Shown here one piece after another: positions 3,289-42,967 of a stretch of 64,000 nucleotides of DNA. This DNA is from Escherichia coli (GTDB lineage Bacteria; Pseudomonadota; Gammaproteobacteria; Enterobacterales; Enterobacteriaceae): NCBI RefSeq assembly GCF_046105845.1, contig NZ_CP151004.1. The stretch is one strand, 5' to 3'. The notes beneath the pieces were generated by a model. That model saw only the letters and a program-made list of their open reading frames with translations. It ran no database searches and was not told the origin of the DNA. Every line of letters begins with the position of its first letter. Within the stretch, counting starts at the first letter, position 1. Made by a program: the position numbers and the translations under genes.

Positions 3289-3656
3289 AGCGCGGATTTA
3301 CCTTGCTGGAAGTGATGCTCGCGCTGGCGATTTTTGCGCTGGCGGCCACGGCGGTGTTACAGATTGCCAGCGGTGCGCTGAGTAATCAGCACGTTCTTGA
3401 GGAAAAAACAGTAGCGGGCTGGGTAGCTGAAAACCAGACCGCGCTGCTCTACCTGATGACCCGCGAGCAGCGGGTGGTCAGGCACCAGGGCGAGAGTGAT
3501 ATGGCAGGAAGCCGCTGGTACTGGCGAACCACACCGCTGAATACCGGTAACGCGCTGCTCCAGGCGGTGGATATTGAAGTCAGCCGTCACGAAGATTTTT
3601 CGTCGGTGATTCAGTCACGACGCGCCTGGTTTAGCGCCGTGGGAGGCCAACAGTGA
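3285..3656 (+). CDS. gspI: Type II secretion minor pseudopilin GspI
   Basis: N-terminal KRGFTLLEVMLA prepilin motif; ATGA overlap with gspH stop. Confidence 0.87.
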   Translation: MKRGFTLLEVMLALAIFALAATAVLQIASGALSNQHVLEEKTVAGWVAENQTALLYLMTREQRVVRHQGESDMAGSRWYWRTTPLNTGNALLQAVDIEVSRHEDFSSVIQSRRAWFSAVGGQQ

Positions 3657-4258
3657 GAAGGACTTGCGCTGGTTTCACGTTACTGGAAATGCTGGTGGCA
3701 ATTGCCATTTTTGCCTCGCTGGCACTGATGGCGCAGCAGGTGACTAACGGCGTCACACGCGTGAATAGCGCCGTCGCCGGACACGATCAAAAACTAAACC
3801 TCATGCAGCAAACGATGAGTTTTCTGACCCACGATCTGACACAAATGATGCCGCGTCCGGTAAGAGGCGATCAGGGCCAGCGTGAACCTGCGTTACTGGC
3901 GGGCGCTGGCGTGCTGGCGTCTGAGAGTGAAGGGATGCGCTTTGTGCGTGGCGGCGTGGTTAACCCGTTGATGCGTCTGCCACGCAGTAATCTGCTCACC
4001 GTCGGTTACCGCATTCATGACGGCTATCTCGAACGGTTAGCCTGGCCGCTGACCGACGCAGCAGGCAGCGTGAAGCCGACAATGCAAAAGTTGATTCCGG
4101 CGGATTCGCTCCGTTTGCAGTTCTACGACGGCACGCGCTGGCAGGAGAGCTGGTCATCAGTACAGGCAATCCCAGTGGCGGTGCGCATGACCCTGCATTC
4201 GCCACAATGGGGCGAGATTGAACGCATCTGGTTGTTACGCGGGCCGCAATTATCATGA
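3653..4258 (+). CDS. gspJ: Type II secretion minor pseudopilin GspJ
   Basis: GTG start overlapping gspI stop (GTGA); N-terminal AGFTLLEMLVA prepilin motif. Confidence 0.85.
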   Translation: MRRTCAGFTLLEMLVAIAIFASLALMAQQVTNGVTRVNSAVAGHDQKLNLMQQTMSFLTHDLTQMMPRPVRGDQGQREPALLAGAGVLASESEGMRFVRGGVVNPLMRLPRSNLLTVGYRIHDGYLERLAWPLTDAAGSVKPTMQKLIPADSLRLQFYDGTRWQESWSSVQAIPVAVRMTLHSPQWGEIERIWLLRGPQLS

Positions 4259-5232
4259 TCACCTCACCACCAAAACGCGGAATGGCACTGGTCGTGGTGC
4301 TGGTATTGCTGGCGGTTATGATGCTGGTGACCATCACGCTTTCCGGGCGAATGCAGCAACAACTTGGGCGAACGCGCAGCCAGCAGGAGTACCAGCAGGC
4401 GCTGTGGTACAGCGCCAGTGCGGAAAGCCTGGCGTTGAGCGCACTCAGTCTGAGCCTGAAAAATGAAAAGCGCGTGCATCTGGCGCAGCCGTGGGCTTCC
4501 GGCCCTCGTTTTTTCCCACTGCCGCAGGGGCAAATCGCCGTCACTCTGCGTGACGCACAGGCCTGCTTTAACCTGAATGCCCTCGCTCAGCCGACGACGG
4601 CGTCGCGTCCTATCGCGGTACAACAACTGATTGCCCTGATCTCGCGCCTGGATGTGCCTGCTTATCGGGCCGAACTGATAGCCGAAAGCCTGTGGGAGTT
4701 TATTGACGAGGACCGCAGCGTGCAGACGCGTCTGGGGCGTGAAGACAGCGAGTATCTCGCCCGCTCGGTGCCGTTCTACGCCGCCAATCAACCGCTGGCC
4801 GATATCAGTGAGATGCGCGTGGTACAGGGAATGGACGCCGGGCTTTATCAAAAACTGAAACCGCTGGTCTGTGCGCTGCCGATGACCCGCCAGCAAATCA
4901 ACATCAATACCCTGGACGTCGCGCAAAGTGTGATTCTTGAGGCGCTGTTTGACCCGTGGTTAAGCCCTGTTCAGGCGCGGGCGTTATTACAACAACGTCC
5001 GGCGAAGGGCTGGGAAGATGTCGATCAGTTTCTTGCGCAGCCGCTACTTGCTGACGTCGATGAGCGTACTAAAAAACAGCTAAAAACCGTCCTGAGCGTG
5101 GACAGCAATTACTTCTGGCTGCGTTCAGATATCACCGTGAATGAGATTGAACTGACGATGAACTCGTTAATTGTCCGCATGGGCCCACAACACTTTTCGG
5201 TTCTCTGGCATCAGACAGGAGAAAGTGAGTGA
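4255..5232 (+). CDS. gspK: Type II secretion minor pseudopilin GspK
   Basis: 325-aa ORF with hydrophobic N-terminus (RGMALVVVL); ATGA overlap with gspJ stop. Confidence 0.85.
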   Translation: MITSPPKRGMALVVVLVLLAVMMLVTITLSGRMQQQLGRTRSQQEYQQALWYSASAESLALSALSLSLKNEKRVHLAQPWASGPRFFPLPQGQIAVTLRDAQACFNLNALAQPTTASRPIAVQQLIALISRLDVPAYRAELIAESLWEFIDEDRSVQTRLGREDSEYLARSVPFYAANQPLADISEMRVVQGMDAGLYQKLKPLVCALPMTRQQININTLDVAQSVILEALFDPWLSPVQARALLQQRPAKGWEDVDQFLAQPLLADVDERTKKQLKTVLSVDSNYFWLRSDITVNEIELTMNSLIVRMGPQHFSVLWHQTGESE

Positions 5233-6407
5233 GTTCCATGCTTGAGATTTTTATCCCGCTTTGCGCCTCCGATCCCATCCGTTGGCAGCACCGTACCACC
5301 GACGTGGAGCACGGCATCTGGTCTGACGTTGACAACGAACAGCTCCAGCAATGGCTGCAAACTGATGCGATTCGACTCTACATTCCCGGCGAATGGATCA
5401 GCGTCTGGCAGGTTGAACTGCCTGATATCCCCCGCAAGCAGATACCGACTATTCTGCCCGCCTTGCTGGAAGAAGAGCTGAACCAGGATATCGATGAACT
5501 GCATTTCGCCCCGTTGAAAATCGACCAGCAACTGGCAACCGTAGCAGTGATTCACCAACAGCATATGCGCAACATTGCGCAGTGGTTGCAGGCAAACGGC
5601 ATCACCCGCGCTACCGTCGCGCCGGACTGGATGTCCATTCCTTGTGGGTTTATGGCTGGCGATGCGCAACGGGTTATCTGCCGCATCGATGAATGCCGGG
5701 GATGGAGCGCCGGGCGGGCGCTGGCTCCGGTCATGTTCCGCGCCCAGCTCAATGAGCAGAATTTACCGCTTTCGCTAACCGTAGTCGGCATTGCACCGGA
5801 AGAGCTATCAGCATGGGCTGGCCCAGATGCTGAACGTCTGACCGTTACGGCTCTGCCCGCCATTACCACTTATGGCGAACCGGAAGGAAACCTGCTAACA
5901 GGGCCGTGGCAGCCCCGCGTCAGCTACCGAAAACAGTGGGCGCGCTGGCGGGTGATGATTCTGCCGATATTGCTGATTCTGGTTGCGCTGGCAGTGGAAC
6001 GGGGCGTGACGTTATGGAGCGTCAGCGAACAGGTGGCGCAAAGCCGCACCCAGGCGGAAAAAAAGTTCTTAACACTGTTCCCGGAGCAGAAGCTGATTGT
6101 GAATTTGCGTTCCCAGGTGACGATGGCGCTGAAAAAATATCGCCCGCAGGCCGACGATACCCGGCTGCTCGCTGAGTTGTCAGCGATAGCCAGCACCCTG
6201 AAATCAGCATCACTTTCCGACATCGAAATGCGTGGTTTCACCTTTGATCAAAAACGCCAGACGCTCCACCTTCAGTTGCAGGCCGCGAACTTTGCCAGCT
6301 TCGACAAACTGCGTAGCGCACTGGCGGCAGATTATGTTGTGCAACAGGACGCGTTACAGAAAGAGGGTGATGCGGTTTCCGGCGGCGTAACGTTGCGGAG
6401 GAAATAA
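5229..6407 (+). CDS. gspL: Type II secretion inner-membrane protein GspL, full length
   Basis: 392-aa ORF; GTG start overlapping gspK stop (alternative ATG at 5238); single TM segment mid-protein. Confidence 0.82.
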   Translation: MSSMLEIFIPLCASDPIRWQHRTTDVEHGIWSDVDNEQLQQWLQTDAIRLYIPGEWISVWQVELPDIPRKQIPTILPALLEEELNQDIDELHFAPLKIDQQLATVAVIHQQHMRNIAQWLQANGITRATVAPDWMSIPCGFMAGDAQRVICRIDECRGWSAGRALAPVMFRAQLNEQNLPLSLTVVGIAPEELSAWAGPDAERLTVTALPAITTYGEPEGNLLTGPWQPRVSYRKQWARWRVMILPILLILVALAVERGVTLWSVSEQVAQSRTQAEKKFLTLFPEQKLIVNLRSQVTMALKKYRPQADDTRLLAELSAIASTLKSASLSDIEMRGFTFDQKRQTLHLQLQAANFASFDKLRSALAADYVVQQDALQKEGDAVSGGVTLRRK

Positions 6408-6408
6408 C

Positions 6409-6945
6409 ATGTTACGCGATAAATTTATTCACTATTTTCAGCAATGGCGTGAACGCCAGTTAAGCCGTGGCGAACACTGGCTTACACAACACCTGGCGGG
6501 GCGTTCTCCGCGTGAAAAGGGCATGTTACTGGCAGCGGTGGTGTTCCTGTTTAGCGTCGGATATTACGTCCTCATCTGGCAGCCGTTGAGCGAACGGATA
6601 GAACAACAGGAGACGTTGTTGCAGCAGCTGGTGGCAATGAACACCCGACTGAAGAGCGCCGCGCCGGATATTATTGCGGCGCGAAAATCCGCCACAACAA
6701 CGCCTGCGCAGGTATCTCGGGTCATCAGTGACAGTGCTTCCGTGCACTCAGTGGTCATCAAGCGGATAGCCGAGCGCGGGGAGAATATTCAGGTCTGGAT
6801 AGAACCTGTGGTGTTTAATGACCTGCTGAATTGGCTTAATGCGCTGGATGAAAAGTATGCGCTGCGGGTGACACAAATTGATGTCAGTGCAGGTGAGAAG
6901 CCTGGGATGGTGAATGTGCAGCGGCTGGAGTTTGGAGGGGGGTAA
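6409..6945 (+). CDS. gspM: Type II secretion protein GspM
   Basis: 178-aa ORF with N-terminal TM helix; GGAG RBS; position matches K-12 yghD next to pheV. Confidence 0.82.
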   Translation: MLRDKFIHYFQQWRERQLSRGEHWLTQHLAGRSPREKGMLLAAVVFLFSVGYYVLIWQPLSERIEQQETLLQQLVAMNTRLKSAAPDIIAARKSATTTPAQVSRVISDSASVHSVVIKRIAERGENIQVWIEPVVFNDLLNWLNALDEKYALRVTQIDVSAGEKPGMVNVQRLEFGGG

Positions 6946-7055
6946 GTATCAGGAGATTAATATCAATAAAATTACTCTCGTTAACGTGGCGAGAGTAATT
7001 CCCCCAGACCTCATAAGCTAAGTTTTTTCGTGAAGGTTATTGCCAGATCCAAAAG

Positions 7056-7080
7056 CAAAAACCCGCCTTGTGGGCGGGTT
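7056..7080 (-). terminator. Rho-independent terminator of pheV
   Basis: Minus-strand hairpin AACCCGCC-CACA-AGGCGGGTT followed by TTTTGCTTTT, directly 3' of the tRNA. Confidence 0.55.
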
Positions 7081-7092
7081 CTTAAGAATTAG

Positions 7093-7168
7093 TGGTGCCC
7101 GGACTCGGAATCGAACCAAGGACACGGGGATTTTCAATCCCCTGCTCTACCGACTGAGCTATCCGGGC
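7093..7168 (-). tRNA. pheV: tRNA-Phe (anticodon GAA)
   Basis: Reverse complement reads the 76-nt E. coli tRNA-Phe sequence, GCCCGGATAGCTCAGTCGGTAGAGCAGGGGATTGAAAATCCCCGTGTCCTTGGTTCGATTCCGAGTCCGGGCACCA. Confidence 0.96.
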
Positions 7169-7273: not shown

Positions 7274-8002
7274 TCAGGCAAACCAAGCGGTCCAGGCGGC
7301 GGAAAGCGGCATTGCCAGAAGGAGTGCTGGAAGCATGTTGACCACCGGGAACATTTTAATGCCACAGATGCGTAATCCGGTTGCCAGCAGCAATAAACCG
7401 CCTACGGCGCTGAAGTCTGCCATCATCGACGGTGTGGTCAGCGGTAATATCAGCGCGGCAGCCCACGCCAGCGTTAACTGGATGATCAGTAATGGGATAC
7501 TAATCACCGATACCGCAATACCCAGCGAGCAGGCGAAGATCATCGCCGTAAAGAAATCAAGAAATGACTTGGCGATTAAAATACTCGGATCGCCGGTCAT
7601 CCCTTCGTTCATTGCCCCGAAGATCCCGGTGCCGCTGGCGCAAAACAGGACAATAATCGCGACATAATTCTGAATAAAAGATTCATGCGCTGGCTTCTTA
7701 CGTGAGTGGCGAAACAGATTTTGTGCTTTGGTGACCGCGGTATTGACGCCTTTTTCCAGCAGACAAATTTCGCCGATTAATGCACCGAGTAAGGTTGCTA
7801 ACACCATCGCAGGAAGGTTGGCGCATTTCACCACCAGTAAAATACCAATCCCCAGCGATGCCAGACCAAAAATTGATGTCATGGAGACGCGGATACGTTC
7901 CGGTAAGCGTTGGCTAAGGAGTGCACCGAGAACGCCACCCAGTAATACTGCACTTGCGTTGATAAAAGGACCGATGACCACAAGAGTTCCTGTTAGCTGC
8001 AT
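7274..8002 (-). CDS. yqgA: DUF554 inner-membrane protein YqgA
   Basis: 242-aa hydrophobic ORF between pheV and speC, as in K-12. Confidence 0.85.
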   Translation of the reverse strand: MQLTGTLVVIGPFINASAVLLGGVLGALLSQRLPERIRVSMTSIFGLASLGIGILLVVKCANLPAMVLATLLGALIGEICLLEKGVNTAVTKAQNLFRHSRKKPAHESFIQNYVAIIVLFCASGTGIFGAMNEGMTGDPSILIAKSFLDFFTAMIFACSLGIAVSVISIPLLIIQLTLAWAAALILPLTTPSMMADFSAVGGLLLLATGLRICGIKMFPVVNMLPALLLAMPLSAAWTAWFA

Positions 8003-18012: not shown

Positions 18013-19020
18013 GTGAAAAAGCAATGGATTGTTGGCACGGCGCTGCTTATGTTGATGACTGGTAATGTCTGGGCAGATGGCGAACCGCCAACTGAAAATA
18101 TCTTAAAAGATCAATTCAAAAAGCAGTATCACGGCATTCTCAAGCTTGATGCTATCACCTTAAAAAATCTTGATGCTAAGGGTAATCAGGCCACCTGGTC
18201 AGCGGAAGGCGATGTCTCTTCCAGTGACGATCTCTATACCTGGGTCGGTCAGTTGGCAGATTACGAACTGCTCGAACAGACCTGGACGAAAGATAAACCG
18301 GTAAAATTCTCGGCGATGTTAACCAGTAAAGGAACGCCCGCGTCTGGCTGGTCGGTGAACTTTTACTCTTTTCAGGCGGCAGCCAGCGATCGTGGACGGG
18401 TGGTCGACGATATCAAAACGAATAATAAATATCTGATCGTGAATAGCGAAGATTTCAATTATCGCTTTAGTCAGCTTGAGACTGCGTTGAATACCCAGAA
18501 GAACTCGATTCCTGCGCTGGAAAAGGAAGTGAAAGCGCTTGATAAGCAAATGGTGGCGGCGCAGAAAGCAGCGGATGCATATTGGGGAAAAGATGCAAAC
18601 GGTAAGCAAATGACCCGCGAAGACGCATTTAAAAAAATTCACCAACAGCGTGATGAGTTTAATAAACAGAACGATAGCGAGGCGTTCGCGATTAAATATG
18701 ACAAAGAGGTTTATCAACCGGCGATTGCGGCATGTCATAAACAGAGTGCAGAGTGTTATGAAGTGCCGATTCAGCAGAAGCGAGAATTCGATATCAACGA
18801 ACAACGGCGACAGACTTTTCTGCAATCACAAAAAATTAGCCGTAAATTGCAGGATGACTGGATAACGCTCGAAAAAGGGCAATATCCGTTAACGATGAAA
18901 GTTTCAGAAATAAACAGTAAAAAAGTCGCGATTTTGATGAAAATTGACGATATCAATCAGGCTAATGAACGCTGGAAAAAAGATACCGAACAATTGCGGC
19001 GCAATGGAGTGATTAAGTAA
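18013..19020 (+). CDS. yggM: DUF1202 periplasmic protein YggM
   Basis: 335-aa ORF, GTG start, signal peptide. Confidence 0.88.
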   Translation: MKKQWIVGTALLMLMTGNVWADGEPPTENILKDQFKKQYHGILKLDAITLKNLDAKGNQATWSAEGDVSSSDDLYTWVGQLADYELLEQTWTKDKPVKFSAMLTSKGTPASGWSVNFYSFQAAASDRGRVVDDIKTNNKYLIVNSEDFNYRFSQLETALNTQKNSIPALEKEVKALDKQMVAAQKAADAYWGKDANGKQMTREDAFKKIHQQRDEFNKQNDSEAFAIKYDKEVYQPAIAACHKQSAECYEVPIQQKREFDINEQRRQTFLQSQKISRKLQDDWITLEKGQYPLTMKVSEINSKKVAILMKIDDINQANERWKKDTEQLRRNGVIK

Positions 19021-19035
19021 CTCATGTTAAGTGCC

Positions 19036-19078
19036 TTTGCCGGATAATATAAAAAGTTATCCGGCAAATTATTTTTTA
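19036..19078 (+). terminator. Rho-independent terminator after yggM
   Basis: 12-bp stem TTTGCCGGATAA/TTATCCGGCAAA, 9-nt loop, then TTATTTTTT; the T-tract overlaps the stop codon of the convergent TRAP large-permease gene. Confidence 0.75.
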
Positions 19079-20377
19079 CATTAGCCCTAGTAGCTGTGGA
19101 ATGAACAAGGATATTTGCGGGATGTAAGTGATCATCATCAACGCGATTAACAATGCGGCATAAAATGGCAGCAATGGTTTGATCAAATGTTGAATCTTCA
19201 CACCTGAAATAGAACAACCAACAAATAGCGCACTACCCACCGGCGGTGTTAACAGCCCAATACAAAGGTTGGCCACCATCATAATACCGAAATGTACCGG
19301 ATCCATTCCCAGCTCTTGTGCAATCGGCAAGAAGATTGGTGTGAAGATTAGTACAGCCGGTGTCATGTCCATAAAGATGCCGACAATTAATAAGACGATA
19401 TTAATCAGCAGCAATATGACCAGTGGGTTATCAGAAATCCCCATCAACGCGTCGCTGATCATATAAGGAATATCAGCATTGGTCATTGCCCAGGACATGC
19501 CCACGGAAAAACCGATCAACAGTAATACAATCGAAGTGGTAACAACCGATTCCAGAATCAGTTTGGGTAAATCGCGCCATTTTACTTCCCGGTAAATCAG
19601 CACCGAGAGGATAAATGTGTAGACAACGGCAATTGCTGACGCTTCAGTTGCGGTAAAAATGCCGCCCAGAATGCCGCCCATTACAATGAACACCAGAAGC
19701 AAACTTGGTAAGGCATCCAGAAACGCTTTACATGCCTGAGCAAAGGTTGCTCTTTCTGAAAGTGGGTAGCCACGGCGTTTAGCAATAATGCCGCAGACTA
19801 TCATTACCGCGAGACCCATTAAGATCCCTGGCAAATATCCCGCCATAAATAGCGATGCTACAGAAACGCCGCCAGCTGTCAGGGAAAACACAATTAACAC
19901 GTTTGAGGGCGGTATCAGTAATCCAGTAATACAAGATGAGACGTTTACAGCGGTAGAAAATGCCGGATCATAACCTTCTTTGGTCTGAATGGGATTCAGT
20001 GTGCCACCAACGGCAGCAGCTGCCGCAACAGCTGAACCAGAAATGGAACCAAACATCATATTCGCCAGGACGTTCACATGACCAAGCGAACCAGGAACGC
20101 GGCCAACCATTACCTGGGCGAGGTTAATCAAACGTATCGCAATACCGCCGCTGTTCATCAGCGTTCCGGCAAAGATGAAAAAGGGGATTGCTAATAGGGC
20201 AAAGTTATCCAGTCCATTAGCCAGTCGCTGCGAAACAGTGATTGCCGCGATATCCTAGGGAAACATCAACAGCATTGAAGCTACAGTGGCAATACCGATT
20301 GAGAACGAAATGGGCACACCAATAAAGACCAGCACAAAAAAACAGCCAAACAGTGTAAGCGCGATATAACTATCCAT
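19076..20377 (-). pseudogene. TRAP transporter large permease (DctM family), interrupted by an in-frame TAG at codon 41
   Basis: ATG near 20377 directly after the small-permease stop; translation reads MDSYIALTLFGCFFVLVFIGVPISFSIGIATVASMLLMFP-stop-DIAAITVSQRL..., and the track's 360-aa ORF (19076..20158) restarts at internal Met 74 in the same frame. Confidence 0.8.
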
Positions 20378-36783: not shown

Positions 36784-37515
36784 ATGAAAAAAGGGAAAGT
36801 ACGTAGCGCGTTGATAGCATTAGCCGTGCTGCTGGCCGGTTGTTCCAGTAATGCGCAGTATAATAGCAGTGCATCGGGCAATGTCGGCACCGCCTGGGGT
36901 GGGGATGTGCACTCATCGGTTCAGGGCGTATCTGCTGAGCGAGCCTGGCGCGATCCGGCAGAGATGATCGTTATTAGTTATTCGACTAATGTTCCTTCCG
37001 GCTATGATCGCGTTTATAGCATTCGTATTAACGAACTGGAATATGCTATTCGCGATGGTAATTTTAATTCTCTACCTATTACGCGTGTTTATGATTCATC
37101 CAATAATGAACCACGCTATATTGTCCATGCCAGAGTCGGAATGAATTATCAATTATATGTCCGTAATTACAGTCGTAACACCAACTACGAGATCGTTGCT
37201 ACGGTTGATGGCCTGGATGTGCTGAACGGCAAGCAAGGTTCGCTGAATAACAACGGCTATATTGTGAATGCCGGAGATTCGTTAGCGATTAAAGGATTTC
37301 GCAAAGATAAACATACCGAAGCGGCTTTTCAGTTCGCCAACGTTGCTGATTCCTACGCAGCCAATTCGGCGCAAGGCGATGTGCGTAATACCGGGGTAAT
37401 CGGCTTTGCCGCCTTTGAATTACAAGGCTCGGCGCAAAACGCGATGCCGCCGTGCTCTGGACAAGCCTTTCCGGCAGATAACAATGGCTATGCGCCGCCA
37501 CCGTGTCGGAAATAG
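36784..37515 (+). CDS. Lipoprotein of unknown function, accessory
   Basis: 243-aa ORF; lipobox LLAGCSS; Asn/Tyr/Ser-rich mature domain; AT-rich (about 32% GC in a sampled 60 nt); own RBS and flanking terminators. Confidence 0.75.
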   Translation: MKKGKVRSALIALAVLLAGCSSNAQYNSSASGNVGTAWGGDVHSSVQGVSAERAWRDPAEMIVISYSTNVPSGYDRVYSIRINELEYAIRDGNFNSLPITRVYDSSNNEPRYIVHARVGMNYQLYVRNYSRNTNYEIVATVDGLDVLNGKQGSLNNNGYIVNAGDSLAIKGFRKDKHTEAAFQFANVADSYAANSAQGDVRNTGVIGFAAFELQGSAQNAMPPCSGQAFPADNNGYAPPPCRK

Positions 37516-42591: not shown

Positions 42592-42967
42592 ATGAATCTT
42601 CCTTGAGTAAAGTGGGGAATATGTCACATGAGGTGAGGAGAAAATAGCCGACAGGTGAGAATTCAGAATCTATAAAGGGGTATAGCGAAAAAACATTGCA
42701 TTAAAAAAGTATGTTTTCGGACATTCAATAAATAAATGGCGATATGCATCACAAATACAACAACAATCAAAATGTTGATTTTGTGACAAACATAACAAAT
42801 ACAAAATTGACTTTAAAAATATCAATTTCATGTTGTTGTTATTTAAAGTTTTATTATTTTTGTTCATGGGGTTTTTCTTCTCGCGTACCCAATTGCTTTC
42901 ATTAAACCGCACGAGTATTTTATTTTTACCGCCGGACGGTACCCTAAAAATAAAATAAGGATAATTT

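Follow-up and report, generated by a model that had tools for sequence, protein, structure and literature searches.

The window analysed here, that is, the whole stretch of 64,000 nucleotides of Escherichia coli DNA (contig NZ_CP151004.1 of assembly GCF_046105845.1), contains on its plus strand the genes gspK, gspL, and gspM (yghD), which were recognized with Pfam E-values down to 9e-47, and gspM is the last gene of the sslE-pppA-gspS-gspC..M (T2SS-beta) cluster (Table 1). A single tRNA, tRNA-Phe(GAA), was placed here by both ARAGORN and Rfam. The corresponding gene, pheV, is encoded on the minus strand, so that its 3' end points towards gspM, from which it is separated by a convergent spacer, whose measured length of 147 bp agrees with the approximately 150 bp estimated in an earlier reading of the DNA made without database searches (hereafter designated the sequence-only reading). 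Beyond pheV on its 5' side lie yqgA and then speC. The spacer itself contains two RNA stem-loops, namely, the terminator of pheV (hereafter designated T1) and a perfect hairpin at 6970-7000, which is situated 24 nt after the gspM stop codon and 55 nt past T1 in the direction of pheV transcription.

Table 1 Features at the gspM-pheV junction, in window coordinates
Feature	Position	Strand	Evidence and remarks
gspK	4255-5232	+	Pfam T2SSK
gspL	5229-6407	+	Pfam T2SSL/GspL_C
gspM/yghD	6409-6945	+	Pfam T2SSM, E = 4.8e-45; RefSeq relatives named "GspM family type II secretion system protein YghD"
Convergent spacer, gspM stop codon to pheV 3' end, 147 bp	6946-7092		Collinear with K-12 MG1655 yghD-pheV
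Segment of ~98 bp of kps-negative E. coli	6946-7044		kps cluster in its place in kps+ strains
U-rich tract after the stem-loop, 5'-UUAUUGAUAUUAAUC-3'	6955-6969	-	Tail score -3.83
Perfect stem-loop	Arms 6970-6980 and 6990-7000, loop 6981-6989		Inverted-repeat search, RNA folding
T1, predicted intrinsic terminator of pheV	7056-7084	-	Terminator scan, folding, tail scores
pheV, tRNA-Phe(GAA)	7093-7168	-	ARAGORN; Rfam tRNA, 68.3 bits
23-nt 3' end of pheV, TTCGATTCCGAGTCCGGGCACCA, attB core for pheV islands	7093-7115	-	One copy in the window
yqgA (DUF554), core gene 5' of pheV	7274-8002	-	Pfam DUF554, E = 4.1e-67; RefSeq relatives

No promoter was found in the spacer by the promoter and terminator scan, and with the Rfam 15 covariance models the tRNA alone passed, nothing overlapping 6970-7000 being detected even at E <= 1. 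The spacer also contains no plus-strand open reading frame with a usable start. On the minus strand, a 21-codon frame, MRSGGITLATLTRVILLILIS, runs through the hairpin from 7014 to 6949 (ATG at 7014-7012); it was rejected as probably not a gene, because it is not preceded by a Shine-Dalgarno sequence and its start codon is ATA in K-12.

State of the pheV site

The pheV gene is a well-known hot spot of island insertion, and speC together with gspM/yghD (or kpsF) provides the standard flanks for locating pheV islands (PMC7686366). The gspM-pheV junction in the window is an ordinary island-free pheV site with a K-12-like layout. An intact tRNA gene stands in a collinear core, its neighbours are gspK, gspL, gspM, and yqgA, every open reading frame 3' of pheV is a gsp gene, and neither an attR nor any integrase or island gene adjoins it. 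These results agree with the sequence-only reading, in which the pheV 3' end had been described as unoccupied and free of any integrase or island. A further copy of the pheV 3' end upstream, which had been named as a sign that the gsp region is itself part of an integrated island, was found neither in the window nor across the sslE-gsp cluster and the glc operon of the closest complete genome. In the window, no second copy of the 23-nt 3' end was detected with up to 3 mismatches, nor was any detected on its 3' side with up to 3 edits including indels; a weak att-like match at 37130 was discarded, being on the wrong side of the tRNA and 3 edits away. Since the window covers just 7 kb on the 3' side of pheV, we also searched 40 kb of the closest complete genome, that of strain MFDS1022581, comprising pitB, the glc operon, sslE, pppA, gspS, and gspC-M up to pheV, and here the pheV 3' end was again present as a single copy. 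The implied noteworthiness of the empty site was not upheld: K-12 is alike, as are 28% of complete E. coli genomes (1522 of 5426), in which a contiguous match to the whole yghD-pheV-yqgA query was obtained. The empty site, being the reference K-12 state, matters little in itself and is of use as an attB baseline for recognizing pheV islands.

In genomes with an occupied pheV site, the homology on the yghD side extends to window position 7115, which is the end of the 23-nt att repeat. The attR copies in ST167 (locus L012, about 3395-3420) and RM9131 (locus L008) are imperfect, each having 22 of the 23 nt because one C of CCCGG is lacking, and are followed by island genes, namely, a DUF4942 gene and a CbtA/YeeU toxin-antitoxin pair. 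As the imperfection is an indel, repeat searches that allow mismatches only can underscore attR. Moreover, the hairpin and T1 are both found on the chromosomal side of attR in the occupied strains and are thus outside the att machinery.

Another state of the junction was encountered in strains bearing the kps cluster. In strain 8178, which is kps+ with an empty pheV site, homology to the window begins at about 7045, just before T1, and past this point lie an IS110 remnant at the pheV-side boundary and kpsF/kpsE (locus L011, 2850-3055). In Escherichia sp. E1V33, unrelated sequence starts directly from the gspM stop codon, and kpsM/kpsT reading frames were confirmed about 1.1 kb downstream; kps-flank sequence similar to that of E1V33 also directly follows gspM in E. 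coli E69 and E. whittamii. T1 is kept in the kps+ strains, and the hairpin is absent from them. Because the kps cluster occupies the place of 6946-7044 in these strains, this segment of about 98 bp is the kps-less allele of the gspM-pheV junction. By blastn it has no homology to the kps flanks, with which it shares chance 8-11-mers only. The replacement is sharply bounded, by the gspM stop codon on one side and by a point about 11 nt before the pheV terminator on the other, and was noted at locus L004 (3535-4700) as well. As a by-product, the junction map distinguishes three alternative states, that is, empty, island-occupied with a 22/23 attR, and kps-bearing with 6946-7044 replaced.

The two stem-loops of the spacer

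T1, which had been missed in the sequence-only reading, is predicted to be a strong intrinsic terminator of pheV. In the terminator scan, its minus-strand form (7084-7056) has a 12-bp stem, 6 pairs of which are G-C, and the stem runs into UUUUUGCUUUU. In the plus-strand reading, T1 has a 9-bp G+C stem followed by UUCUUAAGAAUU, which makes it plausible as a bidirectional terminator serving the gsp operon too, and T1 read backwards is probably where gsp transcription stops. Its folding energy is -18.1 kcal/mol as minus-strand RNA and -15.2 kcal/mol as plus-strand RNA, and its tail scores are -5.1 and -3.66, respectively, in our own tail and terminator scoring, which is sensitive to the chosen stem end, misses T1 when the stem absorbs the U's, and was used solely for comparison between strands.

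Transcript data for this junction are available from K-12, in which window positions 7056-7092 correspond to 3110442-3110486 and the hairpin to 3110534-3110564. The sole 3' end mapped here by Term-seq is at 3110443 (+), which is the mature pheV end (Adams et al. 2021, PMC7815308), and a Rho termination region is recorded at 3110486 (+), right after T1 (PMC7815308, supplementary file 2). The downstream/upstream coverage (800 nt downstream) was 50/4606 in untreated cells and 293/3667 with bicyclomycin, corresponding to a Rho score of 7.36 (p = 3.6e-54) and an approximately sixfold rise in downstream reads (PMC7815308). This rise indicates that pheV, despite its strong hairpin terminator, leaks antisense transcription into yghD, and shows that much of the termination beyond T1 is due to Rho rather than to an intrinsic stop. 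The antisense read-through past T1 would also give a second stop something to act on. The K-12 Term-seq lists (PMC7815308) hold no 3' end at the hairpin, an absence that is uninformative because the T1 end is also unlisted and the gsp operon is silent in K-12, being silenced by H-NS (PMC5012682). Rho terminates an unrelated antisense transcript within yghE, in this case by way of an RNA aptamer (PMC6847712).

The hairpin had been described as a perfect 11-bp inverted repeat with nine intervening nucleotides, and this description was confirmed in full: the left arm AATTACTCTCG and the right arm CGAGAGTAATT, separated by 9 nt, are 100% complementary. The window has 4 loci with a perfect inverted repeat of 11 bp or more and a loop of 3-20 nt, as against 0.375 expected from Markov-shuffled sequence, and no further copy of the hairpin was found in the rest of the window. 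At 19036-19068, between the convergent reading frames 18013-19020 (+) and 19076-20158 (-), there is a perfect 12-bp inverted repeat, TTTGCCGGATAA/TTATCCGGCAAA (13 bp with a closing U-A pair), followed by ATTATTTT, which looks like a bidirectional terminator. Other perfect repeats are located at 22198-22223 (ATTAATGCGCC/GGCGCATTAAT) and 42916-42957 (AT-rich).

Folding of the hairpin region differed between the two strands. The plus-strand RNA folds with -16.1 kcal/mol (z = -5.7 versus shuffles), and its stem lengthens to 14 bp through two G.U pairs and one A-U pair, leaving an ACG triloop. On the minus strand, C-A mismatches stand in place of these extra pairs and the loop remains 9 nt long; the hairpin is part of a structure of -17.0 kcal/mol (z = -3.6 versus shuffles), and its stem has 11-13 bp with 4 G-C pairs and -12 to -13.8 kcal/mol, closed by the 9-nt loop. 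The terminator scan, which considers loops of 3-8 nt, did not call the hairpin with its 9-nt loop. The strands also differ in what follows the stem. The sequence-only reading had stated that no U-tract adjoins the hairpin, and this holds for the plus strand, where the tail, CCCCCAGACCUCAUA / CCCCCAGACC, scores -1.5 and does not qualify as an intrinsic-terminator U-tract, but not for the minus strand, where the stem is followed by TTATTGATATT. Indeed, the minus-strand tail UUAUUGAUAUU has 7 U in its first 11 nt and qualifies as a U-tract, a weak one because it is interrupted; its score is in the top 1.6% of all window positions (Table 1). On the plus strand, an A-tract precedes the stem.

Distribution and variation of the hairpin segment

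Among 5426 complete E. coli genomes, the spacer (6946-7058) was found in 2465, and a 41-nt block containing the hairpin (6965-7005) in 2512, in 2429 of which the block is identical to that of the window. The hairpin occurs at a median of 1 place per genome at E <= 10 and never on a plasmid, the lone "plasmid" match having proved to be a mislabelled 4.8-Mb chromosome. No matches to it were obtained in the collections of viral contigs, phages, and plasmids searched.

No genome is identical to the window in the next 41 nt (7006-7046), where almost all have at least 4 differences. When 11 haplotypes were aligned, 12 variable sites were counted in 147 nt, clustered at 7009-7021, and the 22 stem positions included 1 variable site versus about 1.9 expected, which is no significant depletion. 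Conservation of the hairpin block as a sign of selection was rejected, the contrast with the adjoining nucleotides reflecting the variable cluster 7009-7021. The polymorphic positions of this cluster, which lies between the hairpin and T1, are 7009, 7011, 7018, and 7021, the last with three alleles. The spacer is at least 99% identical to that of the window in just 3 of the 5426 genomes, so that the window carries an uncommon haplotype at this locus.

Two point variants were recovered out of 83 variant genomes, and both spare the core of the stem. One is G6986A in the loop (RM9131 and UTAK-13), and the other is T7000C in the outermost pair (MFDS1022581), which becomes A.C in plus-strand RNA but G.U in minus-strand RNA and may be read as a faint hint in favour of a minus-strand role. 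Larger changes were also found. In UMNF18, an IS679 element (IS66 family) cuts the hairpin at about 6996 (locus L010, 2525-2600), and in isolate LR1, gspM and the hairpin have been replaced by an IS1 (locus L018, 150-225). The hairpin is thus dispensable, having been lost naturally in the kps+ strains, UMNF18, and LR1.

Among the genomes examined, the hairpin was seen in E. coli only and there in the kps-less strains. It does not follow gspM in E1V33, E69, E. whittamii, E. albertii, E. fergusonii, Citrobacter portucalensis, or Salmonella, all of which have unrelated downstream DNA; gspM is followed by a YafT-family gene in E. fergusonii, by a convergent LysR gene, together with a G+C-rich hairpin of its own that looks bidirectional, in E. 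albertii, by an AraC-family gene in C. portucalensis, and by unrelated sequence in Salmonella. Nor does it lie 3' of pheV at the loci of E. albertii, an Escherichia-like genome, C. rodentium, and Salmonella. The first three of these diverge right at the pheV 3' end, like island-occupied sites, an integrase being present there in C. rodentium, and the Salmonella pheV locus is unrelated downstream. The GspM homologues (loci L019, L021, L022, and L024) are 74-94% identical and have a different neighbourhood in each species, none of them beside pheV. These differing neighbourhoods imply that the T2SS-beta cluster moved or was independently acquired, despite the absence of an att scar in E. coli.

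Possible roles of the hairpin and relation to known systems

We favour, at about even odds (a probability of roughly 0.5), the reading that the hairpin is an RNA-level transcript-end element in a convergent junction, with no role in island integration. The spacer is the empty, ancestral-type junction at which two transcription units converge, namely, the plus-strand gsp (T2SS-beta) operon and the minus-strand pheV. In the pheV direction, T1 would carry out nearly all of the termination, and the minus-strand hairpin may serve as a weak backup intrinsic stop that catches the read-through from T1 before its antisense entry into gspM; such a stop would precede the C-rich antisense gspM RNA on which Rho presumably loads. 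On the plus strand, the hairpin would be a stem-loop in the 3'-UTR of the gsp transcript, acting as a barrier to 3'-to-5' exonucleases and not as a terminator, while gsp termination itself would take place at the reversed T1 or by Rho. Lying between convergent genes, the hairpin is placed where terminator hairpins are expected. This reading is also supported by the perfection and stability of the stem, the U-rich tail peculiar to the minus strand, the A-tract ahead of the stem on the plus strand, the neighbouring T1, the read-through past T1 in K-12, the two point variants that spare the stem core, and the lack of any sign of mobility. Against a terminator stand its 9-nt loop, the 4 G-C pairs among 11, and the interrupted U-tract, which would together make a poor one. 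The natural losses of the hairpin, its absence from the related-species loci examined, and the part played by Rho beyond T1 also count against this reading. The data show the structure of the hairpin, its placement, strand asymmetry, copy number, and distribution, and the emptiness of the att site, whereas a terminating or stabilizing activity is inferred. The sequence-only reading had suggested, with due reserve, an operon-end structure, which is compatible with the present result, but it overlooked T1 and judged the U-tract on one strand. A more specific version, in which the hairpin is a dedicated insulator, that is, a second terminator peculiar to this lineage which, acting with Rho, protects the H-NS-silenced T2SS-beta operon against antisense transcription from the very highly expressed pheV, seems unlikely to us; if it were true, loss of the hairpin through kps acquisition or IS insertion should measurably alter gsp/SslE expression.

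It is also possible, though we hold it with less conviction, that the hairpin is a neutral palindrome, a part without function in a 98-bp filler that is specific to the lineage and lies at the junction of gspM and pheV. It could have been left over from the rearrangement between the kps-less and kps-bearing states, or it could be a quasi-palindrome perfected by template-switch mutation, its invariance reflecting the low diversity of E. coli. Such an origin would be in keeping with the lack of significant depletion of polymorphism in the stem, with the natural disruption and deletion that are evidently tolerated, with the fact that over half of complete E. coli genomes and all the loci examined in related species lack the segment, and with the K-12 Term-seq lists, in which no experimental 3' end is reported for the hairpin. 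It sits less easily, however, with the occurrence of a perfect 11-bp repeat within 147 bp, which is improbable when about 0.375 are expected per 64 kb, with the coincidence of the hairpin and a U-rich tail of such high rank, and with a location exactly where end-of-transcript hairpins are expected. Furthermore, the hairpin block is unchanged in 97% of the genomes carrying it, whereas the adjoining 41 nt vary in nearly all.

At the DNA level, the dyad, which is perfect over 31 bp with an inner palindrome CGTTAACG, might be bound by a dimeric protein, such as a regulatory or nucleoid protein that acts on the H-NS-silenced gsp operon or insulates this operon from the highly transcribed tRNA gene. 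A protein-binding palindrome had also been suggested in the sequence-only reading, and none of the present findings speaks in favour of it. Just 5' of the hairpin lies the AT-rich ATCAATAAAATT (window 6962-6973), which we take to resemble the high-affinity nucleation motif of H-NS (TCGATAAATT). The sslE-gsp operon is indeed regulated by H-NS/StpA in ETEC, but this regulation acts at the sslE promoter, more than 15 kb from the operon 3' end at which the hairpin lies (PMC5012682). Moreover, arms of 11 bp set 9 bp apart are unusually long for an operator, no promoter-like site was found near them in the scan, and a single-copy hairpin does not form a regulon-like motif family, so that protein binding appears a rather improbable explanation. 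Still further from the data is the idea that the hairpin is a mobile-element remnant or an accessory part of the pheV att site, with the gsp region or the spacer representing an old island scar. Although pheV is a known island hot spot (PMC7686366) and the G+C content of the gsp region is somewhat high at 50-58%, no second att repeat was found in the 7 kb of the window or in the 40 kb of MFDS1022581, the hairpin exists in one copy and gave no match in the phages, plasmids, and viral contigs searched, and the crossover in occupied strains does not extend beyond the tRNA 3' end, leaving the hairpin outside the island. This reading is largely refuted, and we regard it as very improbable.

K-12 MG1655 has the same gene order, speC-yqgA-pheV-yghD, the same spacer of 147-148 bp, and an identical hairpin and T1; the window spacer differs from that of K-12 by 4 substitutions and 1 indel, all outside the hairpin. 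In contrast, the T2SS-beta cluster of K-12 is internally deleted (yghE and yghF fragments), whereas gspK, gspL, and gspM are intact in the window. The hairpin is unannotated in RefSeq K-12 but is of the ordinary intergenic terminator or 3'-end type. Like REP/BIME and ERIC elements, it is an intergenic palindrome at the end of an E. coli operon; unlike them, it is present at one copy per genome with no related copies at E <= 10, and being single-copy it is not a REP, BIME, ERIC, or MITE element. We know of no resemblance of the hairpin to the REP or ERIC consensus sequences.

Protective 3'-UTR stem-loops set the 3' ends of mRNAs once Rho-dependent termination and trimming by exonucleases have taken place. 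The hairpin resembles them in being strong as plus-strand RNA, in having no U-tract on that strand, and in closely following the last stop codon of a long operon. It differs in that the kps lineages and other species have no such hairpin after gspM. From the intrinsic terminators that act in tandem or bidirectionally between convergent genes, it differs in the 9-nt loop and the 4 G-C pairs of 11, in the interruption of the U-tract on the minus strand and its absence from the plus strand, and in having no mapped 3' end in K-12. It shares with them a stable stem-loop after a gene, a U-rich 3' flank on the minus strand with the A-rich 5' flank on the plus strand, and the proximity of a canonical terminator, T1. 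If the hairpin does terminate the read-through from pheV, it would present another case of tandem or bidirectional termination between convergent genes.
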